Positions 9,001 through 12,000 of a stretch of 64,000 nt of DNA are shown in pieces (positions within the stretch are counted from its first letter, which is position 1; each line of letters opens with the position of its first letter). A program made the position numbers. This stretch comes from Candidatus Aenigmatarchaeota archaeon (lineage in GTDB: Archaea; Aenigmatarchaeota; Aenigmatarchaeia; Aenigmatarchaeales; JACQIB01), in the NCBI GenBank assembly GCA_043799675.1, contig JAZDNN010000024.1, forward strand, positions 1 through 64,000, in the 5' to 3' direction.

Positions 9001-12000
9001 CTGCCCATCCTCTCCCCTGATGGCCGAGGCTATCTTCTCGACAGATTCCTTCAACTTCTTCTTCAGGAAGCCGAACATAACCGGAAAAGAGCGCAGAACC
9101 TTTTAAATCATCGTTCCTGCAGCATCGCTTCTATCTGGGGCTGGAGGCGGACCAGATCCGATTCAACGGCCGAGAGCTGCTGGCTGAGCTTGTTCACGTG
9201 CTTCTGCAGTTCCTCGAGCTTGCCGTCCAGAATCCTGATTGCCTCGGCGCGCGGCTTCTTCAGCACCGCACTGCCGCCTATGCTTATCACGACCTTGTCG
9301 GCCTTCTCTATCCTGCCCGGAACGAAGTTGTCGCAGCCTATGGGGAGCAAAGCATCTGCCGGCTTGATATCGCCCAACAGCTCAAGCGTGGATTTTGTCT
9401 GCGCAATCTCGTTGGCCTTCGTCACGGCCTGCTCCAGCTGCTGGCGCAGGTTCTGGTGGGTGTTCTGCAGGACCTGGAACTGCATCATCTTGGTCTGAAG
9501 CTGCTGCTCCCTCTCGGCCTTTTCATTAGCCATACGCATAGCAACTCCCGCCTTCGGCGGCAAAATTGTTATTGGCAGCTCTGCTGCTCATGCCACATTG
9601 CACCTGCAGCCTTCGGCTGCCAATCATCATTTGCGTATAATCACTTCTTCTCTTCCATCTCGGACTTCTGTTTCACCGGCTCTGCCTGCTTTTCAGCGGC
9701 TCCCTTCTCTTCCTGTATCTCCTTCTCGAGCGTCATCTTCTTCCTCTCCTTCCTCTCTTCCTTTATCCGCTGCTTCTTCTCCGCCTTCTTTTCCTTCTTC
9801 TTCTTCTCGTCGGCTGCGGTGGGCGTCTTGATATCGATACCGACCAATTCGCTGTAAACTATGCCCTCATGCCTGCGGACATGAATCCTGACCTTGCGCG
9901 GCGGGTGCTGGATGCCGCGGGTCCAAAGCATGTCATTTATCGAAGTCCCTATCTTCACGTTGTCGCTCTTCATGTGCTTCTCCAGGAACTTGCGGACAAG
10001 CAACGCGGCCTTCTTGGCCCTGCGCGTCCTGGGAGCGAGCCAGGCGTCGCGAAGCGGCACCATGTAGATCCTTTCTTCGGTCTTTTCAGCCATCTAGAAG
10101 CACCTGCCGCCTCTGGCGGCCAATTGTTCTTGGTTCAATTCATGAACATGCATACCATTCACTTACCTTTGCAATCGTCCCTTCCTCCAATGCTTGGTCT
10201 CGCTGACACGTATGCGCCTGGTCTTCGCCCGCCTCCCGAACTTCTTCAGGTCGGCCCAGCGGGGGGCGCCCTTCTTCTTGCCCGCGGCTATGAGCCTGAG
10301 CTTTTTCTGCTTGAACTTTACCGGTCCCACAAAATCACCCGTAATACTCCTTCAGTATCTTCTCCCTCACGCATGAACTTATGTCTTCACGCAGCCCGGG
10401 CATGTCCTCATCGTCCGCATACTTCCCGGCCTTGGAAGCTTCCGTTATTCCCATCAGAACGGCATACCTCACGGTCTGAATATGATCCGATTCCGCAAGG
10501 TCCGCGGGGGTGCATTCCGGAGCCTGGCGATGCCCGAATGCAGCCTGCCTGCCTTTTACTCCTGCTTGTGTCATATCAACGCCTGATTATCTTGGTCTCT
10601 CGCTTGGTCACGAGGGTGTCCAGTATCTGCCTCAGCTTCGCGTCGGTAATCGTTTCCTTCAACTGACCCGCCTGCATGAGCTGGAGCAGGTACAGTTCCA
10701 GCTGGCTTGCAAGCATCGGATTTGCCATCCTGACGCGGCCGAGCCTCTCGATGGCCGCATTGTCGAGTATCTTGCTGAGCATCATCTTCTTCGCGACCTC
10801 GAGGTGCATCTCATCCGCTTGGGATTCCATGTTCATGCCGAAGCACCCGCAAGCCTGTCGAGCAGCTTCTGCGCCTTCGGCGTGATTACCCTGCCCTTCC
10901 TCGGCTTCTCGACCTTTGTCACGAATCCGGCAGCCTCGAGCTGCTGCAACATGAGCCTGATGAATTTCCCGCCGGTCTTCGCATGATGGGCCGGCTTGTG
11001 GCCGCGCCTGTGCCTGCCGCCGAAAGCGGTCCTGAGCCTCTGGGTCCCGACCGGACCGGTGAGGTAGATCTTCCTCAGGATTGCGGCGCTCCTGATGTAC
11101 CAGAAATCGGCCTGCTCCGGCGGCCTTTCGTTGCTGACACCCGACTTCGTAAATCCGGCCGCCGGGTGCGGCTTGATGGTCTCGATCTTTTTCAGTTCAG
11201 CGGCAAGCGCCGGAATGAGCTTATCCGCCGAAACTTCCTTTGCACTTGGCATAATAGTTCAGCCCAAATACGACGCCCAATCCTTTTTAAGGTTGTTCGG
11301 AGGGGTGCCGACCTCGAAAATCAAACGTGCGGGGTGGTGGTCTGATAACCCTGCTTTTTGAGCGTGTCAATCAGCTTACCGTATTCGGATGAGTTTGCAA
11401 CCGAATCGTCAATCGGGTATATTTCCATCAGCTTGTGGGTCGGATGCGCCACGCAAACCAGACAGCCCTTTTTGTAAAAGCTGACGAACACGCTTTCCTC
11501 CGATTTGAATCCATGAGCCTCTCCGATATTCTGCAAATCCGTCGTATCTACCATGGCAGATATCCGACAGAAAAGGATTAAAAGGGCATGGTGCGCCGAC
11601 CGCGCGGACTGATGTCCGCTGAGTCGACCTCAGGAAAATTTGGTGCGCCGACAGGGATTCTCATAGCACTGCAACCCGAAGGCTGCCAAAACGCCTCTTG
11701 GCGCTTCGCGCTCATTTGAACCCTGGTCATCAGCTATCCTCTTTCTGGTGCAGGTCTTTGCCGTCAGGCAAAGAAGTGCCATGGAAGGCTGAGGTCCTAC
11801 CACTAGACTATCGGCGCAGAGAAGCTTTGCGCACGACCCTCAAAAGCTTATTGCTTGCGGTAGAAAAGGTACGAGCGGCTCCTGGAAACGTCGGCCCTGT
11901 ATTCGAGACCTATGTCCAGTTCCTTCATCGCGGCCTCGCTGACGATGACATTCATGTTGGTCCCGTCGTTGTCGGGCGCGGTCAGGCCGGCCCACTGGCT

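Follow-up and report, generated by a model that had tools for sequence, protein, structure and literature searches.

About half of the tRNA genes in this archaeal genome (23–24 of approximately 43, counted across the whole genome with our own cloverleaf fitter) are interrupted in the T-loop between positions 59 and 60, by short introns that fall into families shared by tRNAs with different anticodons. These are, in all likelihood, genuine archaeal bulge-helix-bulge (BHB) introns that have been handed on among different tRNA genes. The host is a 749 kb metagenome-assembled genome (MAG), 83% complete, whose SRP54 protein is closest to those of Aenigmatarchaeota (DPANN) MAGs; the stretch of DNA analysed here, referred to below as the window, covers 64 kb of one of its contigs (C16). 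Only one tRNA gene is free of introns and 42 of 43 are interrupted, in agreement with the initial annotation, which held that nearly the whole tRNA set depends on splicing. For Asp, Asn, Lys, Glu and Ile, all genes in the census bear a T-loop intron, and CCA is encoded in all tRNA genes of the genome. The census comes from a heuristic fitter that mis-fitted C8, C10 22539 (first pass), C16 13300 and the V region of C16 19071, and some genes were corrected by eye.

Standard tools recover little of this set. Across the whole genome, ARAGORN -i called 10 tRNAs, all 88–140 nt long, and the Rfam tRNA model called 14; the earlier figure of 16 standard-tool tRNAs, 14 of them 85–121 nt, was not reproduced. 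The accompanying statement that tRNAs with T-loop introns escape both programs did hold, as ARAGORN detected 0 of 23 T-loop-interrupted genes and Rfam 0 of the 21 tested. In the window, both tools report the same single tRNA, Thr(UGU). Relaxing the Rfam tRNA model to E ≤ 5 over positions 9400–11900 still did not find the interrupted tRNA-Gly(UCC), and Rfam searches at E ≤ 5 over that region and at E ≤ 1 over 17 loci returned no family for the intron, the leader element described below or the interrupted tRNAs. The lone match at E ≤ 5 over 9400–11900, sR17 at 15.9 bits, lies well below the gathering score of 36. C/D box sRNAs carry a C motif (RUGAUGA) and a D motif (CUGA) together with guide sequences; the alignment of the main intron family, designated family A, contains no such boxes and a C/D box sRNA intron was rejected.

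The tRNA-Gly(UCC) gene (table 1) illustrates the anatomy of the interrupted genes. Its 5′ part, on the minus strand, consists of the acceptor strand GCGCCGA, a D arm and an anticodon arm that reads TCAGC/CTTCCA, 46 nt of intron, then A/GCTGA. The 3′ part continues with the V region TGAC and the T arm, CAGGG TTCAAA followed by 57 nt (11714–11658) and T CCCTG, and ends in TCGGCGC-A-CCA. The fit is identical with or without a bonus for BHB pairing, and once the T-loop insert is removed in silico ARAGORN reads Gly(tcc) i(37,46). In the 37/38 intron, the central helix C32–C35 with GAGG pairs in 4 of 4 positions when drawn by hand, one pair being G·U. For the T arm together with its intron the folding energy is −34.6 kcal/mol (z −4.05); the minimum free energy structure is a different fold, with the BHB conformer 3.2 kcal/mol higher. 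Of the other interrupted genes in the window, tRNA-Leu(GAG) has a T-loop intron 93% identical to that of tRNA-Gly(UCC), and tRNA-Lys(CUU) has the acceptor and T arm of Lys(UUU) at C4 14440–14640. For tRNA-Met(CAU) the D arm scores 17 with two introns and 16 with one, before penalties. tRNA-Trp(CCA) was called by neither ARAGORN nor Rfam and was read by eye against the Trp gene of a related genome, G032.

Table 1. Features in the window, in order of position.
Feature	Position	Strand	Details
tRNA-Leu(GAG)	536..698	-	17-nt intron within the anticodon stem (about 650-666); family-A 59/60 intron 553-609
Three-hairpin leader homologous to family A, before prefoldin gene	9528..9601	-	Ends in SD-like AGTTG..ATG
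Three-hairpin leader, before ribosomal protein L31e	10087..10163	-	
tRNA-Gly(UCC) gene, encoded CCA	11641..11817	-	Exons 11817-11782, 11735-11715, 11657-11641; by eye, fitter and ARAGORN
57-nt family-A (subfamily A1) intron, T-loop 59/60 of tRNA-Gly(UCC)	11658..11714	-	Sequence reading and family alignment
46-nt intron, canonical 37/38 of tRNA-Gly(UCC)	11736..11781	-	ARAGORN and fitter
tRNA-Trp(CCA), intact T arm	13300..13463	-	D-loop intron (~31-37 nt) and 37/38 intron (~57 nt); boundaries approximate
tRNA-Thr(UGU)	13548..13635	-	12-nt 37/38 intron; the window's only tRNA visible to standard tools
tRNA-Met(CAU), 3 or 4 introns	18316..18568	-	D arm within 18501-18554; anticodon loop 18398-18485; family-C 59/60 intron 18333-18375
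tRNA-Lys(CUU), three introns	19071..19267	-	D arm ~19224-19244; 37/38 ~19164-19208 (45 nt, by eye); family-A (A2) 19088-19141
Three-hairpin leader, before nucleotidyltransferase-domain ORF (start ~40690)	40629..40701	+	
Three-hairpin leader, before ribosomal protein L35Ae	43010..43087	+	
RtcB tRNA-splicing ligase	57749..59212	+	Pfam PF01139, E 3.6e-157; expected exon joiner

The initial annotation described thirteen tRNA genes that share a homologous 59/60 intron, and family A does comprise 13 genes, for tRNAs of different identity and with the intron in BHB register. Searching the genome with a covariance model of 11 copies gave 13 sites at E ≤ 2e-4, two of them short copies outside the training set. 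Each of the twelve copies originally listed, and the additional one on C6, is flanked by GTTCRAA (GTCCGAA on C6) and by T, the 3′ strand of the T stem, 7 nt, N and CCA, and the insertion point is exact to the base in 13 of 13. All 20 candidates tested, which include 12 of the 13 family copies, have an acceptor 5′ strand of full complementarity upstream, and so does the C6 copy. By way of chance control, an intact T arm with CCA and acceptor gave 18 matches in the genome and none in a shuffled genome; a loose scan for T-loop inserts gave 60 matches against 23–35 in five shuffles, which limits trust in that scan to the GC-rich, family-forming subset. With the T-loop insert excised in silico, ARAGORN -i called a tRNA in 17 of 20 candidates, and our own fitter resolved a complete cloverleaf for 23 interrupted genes.

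The copies had been given as 80–95% identical. That range applies only within subfamilies, of which there are two (A1 and A2): across 11 copies pairwise identity is 56–98% (median 69%), and nearest neighbours are 77–98% identical. The host genes of the 13 copies serve about 8 amino acids. Some of the anticodon identities taken from ARAGORN also required revision, three of them being wrong. C41 146–398 was called Ala but lacks G3:U70 and fits Ile(GAU); C43 436–621, also called Ala, likewise lacks G3:U70, and its V arm, of class II, and its G73 fit Ser(GGA); C16 19071–19267, called Gln(UUG), reads Lys(CUU), with the acceptor and T arm it has in common with Lys(UUU). Family A is only part of the T-loop intron picture in this genome, which holds two more families and singletons, for a total of 23–24. 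According to our fitter, 18 of 23 T-loop introns belong to cross-anticodon families here compared with 0 of 52 introns elsewhere in the tRNA genes; the corresponding numbers for G032 are 18 of 21 and 0 of 34.

Since the MAG is incomplete, the working tRNAs could be imagined to reside in the unassembled 17%, with the interrupted genes being pseudogenes or products of misassembly. We regard this as extremely improbable. The 23 anticodons with a T-loop intron are all different, with no second gene copy for any of them in the census; removal of the introns leaves intact cloverleaves with conserved acceptors and encoded CCA; the BHB helices covary, as described next; and the same pattern recurs in another four assemblies and in four contigs from metagenomes.

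The T stem, the pairing of T54–R57 with an intron YGAG and two 3-nt bulges together make up a BHB site with covariation. Over 11 copies, 99.1% of 110 helix cells pair, against 37–56% when the partner is slid by 1–3 columns, and compensatory changes are seen from U55:A to C55:G and from A57:U to G57:C. The earlier count of 9 of 12 copies with a fully paired central helix was reproduced; over 13 copies, pairing is 4/4 in 10, 3/4 in two and 2/4 in one (4/4 if slid by one). Among 57 T-loop-insert candidates from three genomes, a number that includes two doubtful ones, the central helix in BHB register is 4/4 in 35 and 3/4 in 18, while six slid registers of the same candidates give 4/4 in 0–5. Most T-loop introns outside family A have no adjacent inner helix, corresponding to the relaxed hBH form. 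Two adjacent genes for the splicing endonuclease EndA (PF01974) are present on C10, at about 51.4–52.5 kb. One product is closest to chain 3IEY_A, a solved EndA structure from Nanoarchaeum equitans (E 7e-30), and keeps EHTKW; the second has AKW at the aligned position, and the aligned catalytic subunit has RAN instead of RKK at the conserved Lys position. These matches to PDB sequences suggest an alpha/beta-type pair. Across the order, Rfam detects fewer tRNAs in those families whose EndA genes are paired than in family f2, where EndA is mostly single (rough medians approx. 18 versus approx. 35).

Taken at the level of the pre-tRNA, the T stem would serve as the outer helix of the splice site. 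T54-T55-C56-R57 would pair with the intron's own YGAR, 3–6 nt before the intron 3′ end, as the 4-bp central helix, and the two 3-nt bulges would be A58-A59-i1 and iN-1-iN-T60. In family A the inner helix is predicted to be AGCG/UGCU after one G·A mismatch, which occupies the first pair and makes for a slightly relaxed form. This geometry would copy that of the anticodon arm at 37/38: a stem of 5 bp and a loop of 7 nt that is cut after its sixth position. Both bulges would be cleaved by a two-subunit (alpha/beta-like) EndA, and RtcB would ligate A59 to U60; splicing itself and the exact cut sites of the T-loop introns are predictions made from sequence.

Family A was not found in the 41 other genomes of the order, as the initial annotation had reported. 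Its conclusion that the intron therefore multiplied within this lineage does not follow: 59/60 introns are abundant in relatives as other sequence families, and the absence of any one family does not distinguish between gain, loss and replacement. They interrupt 21–22 of 36–37 genes in G032, 9 of 12 in the sampled part of G022 and two genes in 50 kb of G030, while G033, which belongs to the same taxonomic family as the two genomes of the G032/G000 comparison (G000 being the genome described here), has them in 0–1 of 35 genes. T-loop introns at 59/60 are thus a clade-wide trait with rapid turnover. Between G000 and G032, presence at 59/60 differs in approximately 11 of 27 comparable tRNAs, and where both are interrupted the introns can be unrelated in sequence, for example in Lys UUU, Lys CUU, Ser CGA, Ser UGA, Arg GCG and Ala UGC. 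In G032, one tRNA has two T-loop introns.

Close metagenome relatives (flanks 81–99% identical) show the T-loop intron swapped for that of another tRNA, with exons 95–97% identical. The Gly(UCC) intron is 75% identical to its metagenome orthologue but 93% identical to the intron of Asn(GUU); for Ser(CGA) the values are 80% to the orthologue and 96% to Leu(GAG). In Lys(UUU), the two genomes compared have a 93-nt anticodon intron that is 100% identical, yet their T-loop introns differ in length, at 31 nt and 54 nt. On these pairwise comparisons, the relationships of the introns appear to conflict with those of their host tRNAs for Gly(UCC) and Ser(CGA). The observations could also be accommodated if 59/60 introns were ancient and were homogenised within each genome by gene conversion (concerted evolution), with no fresh insertion into intron-free T-loops: the order has such introns in two of its taxonomic families, tRNAs such as those listed above are interrupted in both G000 and G032, and the metagenome cases represent replacement at an occupied site rather than first insertion. 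We consider this unlikely, however. The difference at approximately 11 of 27 tRNAs and the near absence of T-loop introns from G033 would call for many precise losses, homology beyond the intron amounts to only about 8 + 3 conserved bases, introns 98% identical sit in different T stems (CAGGG and GCAGG), and copies exist outside T-loops too.

Some of those outside copies belong to a structured element in its own right. A three-hairpin element homologous to family A stands ahead of approximately 21 start codons, four of them in the window (table 1). A covariance model made from 20 free-standing copies alone matches seven T-loop introns at 25–38 bits (E 1.8e-8 to 3e-4), and on this evidence the two appear to share ancestry. 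The same model gave no match in 38 of the 41 other genomes, and free-standing copies are present in two other genera. Free-standing copies are the more diverged (mean column identity 55%). They were also considered as BHB-flanked introns, which was rejected: some combination of H4, h2 and h′2 occurs in 9 of 21, in inconsistent places, giving no consistent BHB. The three-hairpin leader that precedes ribosomal protein genes shows strong covariation and is a structured element so far undescribed.

This homology raises the question of what is being copied. One doubtful but possible answer is that small non-autonomous DNA elements insert widely, that free-standing copies act as leaders or small-RNA genes, and that T-loop copies survive because they can be spliced. 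The leader copies and their occurrence in two other genera speak for it, as do one element copy inside an anticodon-loop intron, that of tRNA-Met(CAU) (R2 match 18401–18469, E 4.9e-5), and G032 families with two free-standing copies, one directly behind a TTTAAA box, and one D-loop copy. Given that two G032 copies lie elsewhere than in a T-loop, or in no tRNA at all, the T-loop should be seen as the preferred site and not the only one. Against such DNA elements, no terminal inverted repeats or target duplications were seen by eye in the alignments, and a search of the genome for a Y1 (IS200/IS605-type) transposase found none. The base-exact position in 13 of 13 copies fits selection for splicing, yet would equally fit a site-specific process, and the diverged free-standing copies, fixed before conserved genes, have the appearance of long-established functional leaders and not of new insertions. 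In a related and similarly tentative proposal, the T-loop introns would be distinct small mobile elements that carry only the intron half of the BHB site (YGAR-NN plus inner helix) and land in the universal T arm of any tRNA, with free-standing master or sister copies acting as small RNAs or SD-bearing 5′ leaders.

Spread at the RNA level would require an excised intron to be re-ligated into another tRNA (reverse EndA/RtcB action on a trans BHB), reverse-transcribed and recombined into the gene. The exchange is intron-precise, a reverse transcriptase gene and an RT-16 RNA lie 1–2 kb from RtcB in the window, and all tRNA genes encode CCA. Still, this route seems improbable, since the reverse transcriptase family is unmatched in intron-rich G032, G030 and G022 and present in intron-poor G033, where encoded CCA is also universal without T-loop introns. 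Reverse transcriptase was rejected as a driver more generally, as 9 of the order's 42 genomes have PF00078, with no link to the intron-rich ones. Free-standing LAGLIDADG endonucleases were likewise rejected: PF14528 varies from 0 to 40 per genome, with 0 in intron-rich G022 and 1 in G030.

Neither the 59/60 position nor transposition of tRNA introns is new, both being known from ARMAN-2 and Thermoproteales. In the available accounts of Thermoproteales (Fujishima et al. 2010 MBE; Sugahara et al. 2008 MBE; via PMC4090602, PMC4033280 and preprint 10.64898/2026.10.13.758758), similar short BHB introns occupy the same non-canonical position in tRNAs of different identity, with multiple introns per gene and an (alpha-beta)2-type endonuclease, a type that is probable here. 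The proportion of introns in cross-type families at 80% identity or more is comparable, at 24% and 33% here and 28.3% there. The lineages are different, the present host being DPANN and Aenigmatarchaeota-like, and by those same accounts the present system differs in that all family members occupy the single site 59/60, that families are younger (those of at least 90% identity hold 24% of G032 introns versus 12.5%), and that replacement is seen directly in close relatives along with a link to a free-standing leader element. Candidatus Micrarchaeum acidiphilum ARMAN-2, also DPANN, has a 59/60 intron with a relaxed hBH motif that is cut in vitro by its own EndA; 56% of its tRNA genes are disrupted, some missed by standard tools, and one tRNA has two T-loop introns, as in G032 (Fujishima et al. 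2011, PMC3239211). As far as the accessible part of that report goes, two tRNAs have a 59/60 intron (13 nt in Cys), intron families are not described, and the endonuclease is a three-unit epsilon2 protein in place of the two separate adjacent genes found here. Asgard archaea resemble this genome in having approximately two introns per gene, many missed by annotators, at BHB-competent sites, but only 1.5% of their introns belong to cross-type families, compared with 24–33% here, all at one position. Kaneta et al. 2018 (PMC5829648) took the incomplete tRNA sets of newly obtained DPANN and Asgard genomes as a sign of disrupted genes yet to be identified, and noted that disruption and EndA architecture vary together; no Aenigmatarchaeota genome was among those they analysed, and 59/60 intron families are not described there as a cause. 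Literature on Aenigmarchaeota tRNA introns, multiple non-canonical introns in DPANN and archaeal T-loop BHB motifs likewise yielded no description of 59/60 intron families for this clade.

Why families should form at this one site may be explained by portability, as the geometry and distribution of the introns suggest. The exon half of the site would consist of the T stem and the near-universal TTCR, so any intron ending in YGAR-NN could be spliced from any tRNA, whereas a 37/38 intron would have to match each anticodon loop. Portability would thus account for cross-anticodon families being limited to T-loop introns, for fast turnover by gain, loss and replacement with another tRNA's intron, and for each genome of the clade having its own families. 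The T arm as a universal splice-competent site would also explain why the non-canonical 59/60 position recurs, and it predicts that this position tolerates any sequence ending in YGAR-NN.

For annotation, the consequence is that ARAGORN and Rfam detect 10–14 of approximately 43 tRNA genes in this genome and only 4–15 in many complete relatives, which makes tRNA counts misleading as a measure of MAG quality and as a basis for claims of ‘missing tRNAs’ in DPANN. The missing genes can be recovered by a simple scan anchored on the T arm. The three-hairpin leader also merits separate study. A 2026 preprint on Asgard archaea identified no route by which tRNA introns arrive; the present clade provides dozens of very recent events, all at a single defined position. 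Replacement at strain level, with the nearly intron-free G033 as a control, opens the putative copying process to population genomics and to in vitro assays with EndA and RtcB. Should the mobile-element proposal prove true, tRNA introns and mRNA leader modules would be alternative states of a single element, which would now be remodelling the tRNA set of an entire archaeal order.

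The tRNA-Gly(UCC) gene can be read directly from the sequence as a GCGCCGA acceptor strand, a D arm of GTCT/AGTGGTA/GGAC, an anticodon arm (TCAGC-CTTCCA and A-GCTGA) split by a 46-nt intron, the variable loop TGAC, a T arm (CAGGG-TTCAAA and T-CCCTG) split by a 57-nt insert, and a TCGGCGC-A-CCA terminus with CCA encoded. A custom cloverleaf fitter recovered it with introns at 37/38 and 59/60; the T-loop cut falls at 59/60 when bulge-helix-bulge (BHB) splice sites receive a bonus, and shifts by 3 bases (G57 for A57) without it. The gene is not matched by Rfam even at E ≤ 5. Near-identical copies of the insert are present at other places in this genome (G000). 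All 12 positions listed in the initial annotation, together with a copy on contig C6, do lie between GTTCRAA (R, purine) and a T followed by the 3′ strand of the T stem, 7 nt, N and CCA. A fully complementary acceptor 5′ strand was found 59–355 nt upstream in 20/20 insert candidates, including 12 of these 13 copies (family A); that of the C6 copy was located separately. A covariance model trained on 11 copies identified 13 places in the genome (E ≤ 2e-4), including two 31-nt short forms absent from the training set. Pairwise identity is 56–98% (median 69%), and 77–98% to the nearest neighbour. Subfamily A1 (56–59 nt, with a UUCG hairpin) occurs in Gly(UCC), Leu(GAG), Leu(CAA), Ser(GGA) and Ser(CGA), and A2 (54–55 nt) in Lys(CUU), Asn(GUU), Pro(CGG), Gly(GCC), Ile(GAU) and one gene with a UAU anticodon.

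The identities initially taken from ARAGORN hold only in part, failing for three genes. Ala is ruled out for those on C41 and C43, both lacking the G3:U70 pair present in all three true Ala genes; the C43 gene fits Ser(GGA), with a class II variable arm and G73, and the C41 gene fits Ile(GAU). The third reads Lys(CUU), its acceptor and T arm being those of Lys(UUU); it is interrupted by three introns, one in the D arm and the others at 37/38 and 59/60.

The BHB structure tested comprises the T stem, a central helix pairing T54–R57 with the four bases 3–6 before the intron 3′ end, and AGCG/UGCU inside. In this register, 99.1% of 110 cells in family A are paired, falling to 37–56% when the 3′ partner is shifted by 1–3 columns, and the central helix shows two compensatory changes, from U55:A to C55:G (C6 copy) and from A57:U to G57:C. 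The reported 4/4 central helix in 9 of 12 copies was reproduced, with 10 of 13 here. Across 57 candidates from three genomes, 35 have 4/4 and 18 have 3/4 pairs, while shifted registers give 4/4 in only 0–5. The Gly T arm plus intron folds at −34.6 kcal/mol (z −4.05); the BHB conformer lies 3.2 kcal/mol above the optimum, and is therefore a near-optimal state rather than the predicted one. At T-loop position 55, five tRNA genes carry C in place of U (TCCRAAT), as seen also in genome G033 of the same order; pseudouridine 55 is therefore impossible in these tRNAs. Four such genes have a T-loop intron; in two of them, on C6 and C23, the intron base facing position 55 is G, and the BHB helix is thereby preserved. 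Thr(UGU) and Thr(CGU) have the unusual T-loop TGCAATT, with G at position 55.

A census scan for a T arm, CCA and a matching acceptor gave 18 matches with intact T-loops against none in a shuffled genome. It also revealed T-loop introns of family B (Asp GUC, Arg GCG) and family C (Gln CUG, Met CAU, Ala UGC), and single inserts outside the families. Uniform fitting with our own heuristic fitter, with a few misfits corrected by eye, yielded 43 tRNA genes with 75 introns (1.74 per gene): 36 in the anticodon arm, 23 in the T-loop, 13 in D and 3 in V, plus a candidate 24th T-loop intron on C31. No anticodon recurs among them, the sole intron-free gene is Pro(UGG), and for Asp, Asn, Lys, Glu and Ile every gene in the census has a T-loop intron. 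ARAGORN -i detects 0/23 T-loop-interrupted genes and the Rfam tRNA model 0/21 tested; of the six tRNA genes in the window, both programs detect only Thr(UGU). CCA is encoded in 43/43 census genes, a figure to be read with the scan's requirement for CCA, under which CCA-less genes would be missed. The 37/38 intron of tRNA-Trp(CCA) contains GATGA and GTGATGA motifs, reminiscent of the C/D box guide RNA that other archaea have in their tRNA-Trp intron. In tRNA-Met(CAU), the introns at 37/38 and 59/60 may be accompanied by two in the D arm, making four, though the scoring is indecisive; the maximum in the portions of literature compared is three per tRNA.

Coordinates of the features discussed (C16 is the contig of the window; contigs belong to G000 unless stated)
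Feature	Contig	Position	Strand
tRNA-Gly(UCC)	C16	11817-11641	minus
tRNA-Lys(CUU)	C16	19071-19267	
tRNA-Thr(UGU)	C16	13548-13635	minus
tRNA-Met(CAU)	C16	18316-18568	minus
tRNA-Trp(CCA) 37/38 intron	C16	~13338-13394	minus
tRNA gene fitting Ile(GAU)	C41	146-398	
tRNA gene fitting Ser(GGA)	C43	436-621	
tRNA-Thr(CGU)	C6	15771-15858	
C55 tRNA gene	C6	2210-2381	
C55 tRNA gene	C20	853-993	
C55 tRNA gene	C23	3002-3173	
C55 tRNA gene	C45	5786-5952	
C55 tRNA gene	C10	42136-42257	
Candidate 24th T-loop intron	C31	8815-8851	
Three-hairpin element	C16	9528-9601	minus
Three-hairpin element	C16	10087-10163	minus
Three-hairpin element	C16	40629-40701	plus
Three-hairpin element	C16	43010-43087	plus
LAGLIDADG protein	C16	20965-22191	plus
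LAGLIDADG protein	C16	59041-60276	minus
Reverse transcriptase	C16	60332-61408	minus
RT-16 RNA match	C16	61614-61790	minus
CCA-adding enzyme	C16	26331-28133	
Free-standing intron copy	G032 C3	31444-31481	

The assembly (749 kb, 45 contigs, 54% G+C) has 83% completeness and 0.08% contamination. Its nearest SRP54 homologues (≤57% identity) come from MAGs titled Candidatus Aenigmatarchaeota, which places the host among the DPANN archaea and outside the Thermoproteales. Two neighbouring genes on C10 match the EndA catalytic domain, one with PDB 3IEY_A as best match (E 7e-30) and its His kept, the second without His; judged by sequence, the pair appears to be an alpha/beta arrangement, which the available text of PMC3239211 and PMC5829648 gives as one of two EndA types capable of cutting non-canonical sites. 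RtcB, Pus10 and a CCA-adding enzyme are encoded within the window, the last with 600 aa, of which the N-terminal ~290 lack a Pfam match.

Family A is absent from the 41 other genomes of the order, as first claimed. Rfam tRNA counts per genome (7–18 in five of six same-family relatives, 5–22 in family f3, 4–20 in f8, mostly 27–43 in f2) indicate that hidden tRNAs are common across the order. Where a family has paired EndA genes, detectable tRNAs tend to be few, while f2 has mostly a single EndA and many; G033 and G037 are exceptions. We sampled G032 (same family, other genus) whole, and G030, G022 (family f3) and G033 in part. In G032, 21–22 of 36–37 genes have a 59/60 insert, in four families of its own with copies 95–100% identical between different tRNAs, and presence at 59/60 differs from G000 in approximately 11 of 27 tRNAs. 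G022 (335 kb sampled) has inserts in 9/12 and G030 (50 kb) has two, resembling one G032 family as judged by eye. G033 (348 kb) has 34 intact T arms, a number unchanged without the CCA requirement, and one doubtful insert.

The family-A model also gave a weak match upstream of topoisomerase VI B, which led to approximately 21 free-standing elements of ~75 nt, four in the window and 17 elsewhere in G000. Each forms three hairpins, and its 3′ end takes in an SD-like AGGTG together with the start codon of the gene that follows. Among the genes so preceded are those for L35Ae, L31e, S8, L32e, L18, prefoldin and Topo VI B, with a tandem pair upstream of top6B. The element has no Rfam family, and compensatory changes occur in 10/13 predicted pairs. 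A model built from 20 free-standing copies alone matches seven T-loop introns (25–38 bits) and one anticodon-loop intron; beyond G000 it has four matches only, all within two related genera. Across the free-standing leaders, no BHB recurs consistently. The G032 intron families include two free-standing copies and one D-loop copy; one free-standing T-loop-intron copy lies directly behind AAAGCTTTTAAA, a box resembling an archaeal promoter, and could be an independently transcribed master copy.

As to a copying mechanism, the distributions of reverse transcriptase, LAGLIDADG and Y1 transposase lend no support. An Rfam RT-16 RNA match (57 bits) is closely followed downstream by a reverse transcriptase gene (PF00078, E 3e-16), 1–2 kb from RtcB; the reverse transcriptase family is found in 9/42 genomes of the order, with no relation to intron load. 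Two free-standing ~410-aa proteins combine LAGLIDADG and helix-turn-helix domains; one is encoded between RtcB and the reverse transcriptase gene, and the second at a distance of 1.7 kb from two interrupted tRNA genes. LAGLIDADG_3 has 15 matches genome-wide.

Sharing between tRNAs of different anticodon is concentrated in the T-loop: 18/23 T-loop introns in G000 and 18/21 in G032 belong to such cross-anticodon families, against 0/52 and 0/34 of the others. These families hold 24% of all introns in G000 and 33% of those in G032 at ≥80% identity (24% in G032 at 90%); section 2.5 of preprint 10.64898/2026.10.13.758758 gives 28.3%, or 12.5% at 90% identity, for Thermoproteales and 1.5% for Asgard. 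A pattern scan of metagenome contigs yielded four loci of close relatives with flanks 81–99% identical to G000. The relative's Gly(UCC), 97% identical as a mature tRNA, has a T-loop intron from the other subfamily, which is 75% identical to its orthologue but 93% to that of Asn(GUU). For the Ser(CGA) T-loop intron the figures are 80% to the orthologue and 96% to that of Leu(GAG). G000 and relative contig L237 share the 93-nt anticodon intron of Lys(UUU) at 100% identity, while their T-loop introns differ in length (31 nt in one, 54 nt in the other). These three comparisons appear to be direct signs of intron exchange. The 22–24-nt D-loop intron of Lys(UUU), present in L237 only, was gained or lost very recently, in this case outside the T-loop.

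A literature search found nothing describing these 59/60 intron families in this clade. The available text of PMC3239211 already describes the 59/60 position, in vitro cleavage there and missed tRNA genes for ARMAN-2, and intron families across tRNAs are known in Thermoproteales (as cited in the portions of PMC4090602 and PMC4033280 available). Compared with both, what is new here is the lineage, the single dominant site, the order-wide scale, the visible replacement between close relatives and the link to a leader element. The sharing of T-loop introns may be explained as follows. For an intron at 59/60, the T stem and a near-universal TTCR would supply the exon half of the BHB, so that an intron ending in YGAR-NN (Y, pyrimidine) would be spliceable from any tRNA; the 37/38 helix takes in the anticodon loop, and an intron there would thus have to suit each tRNA.
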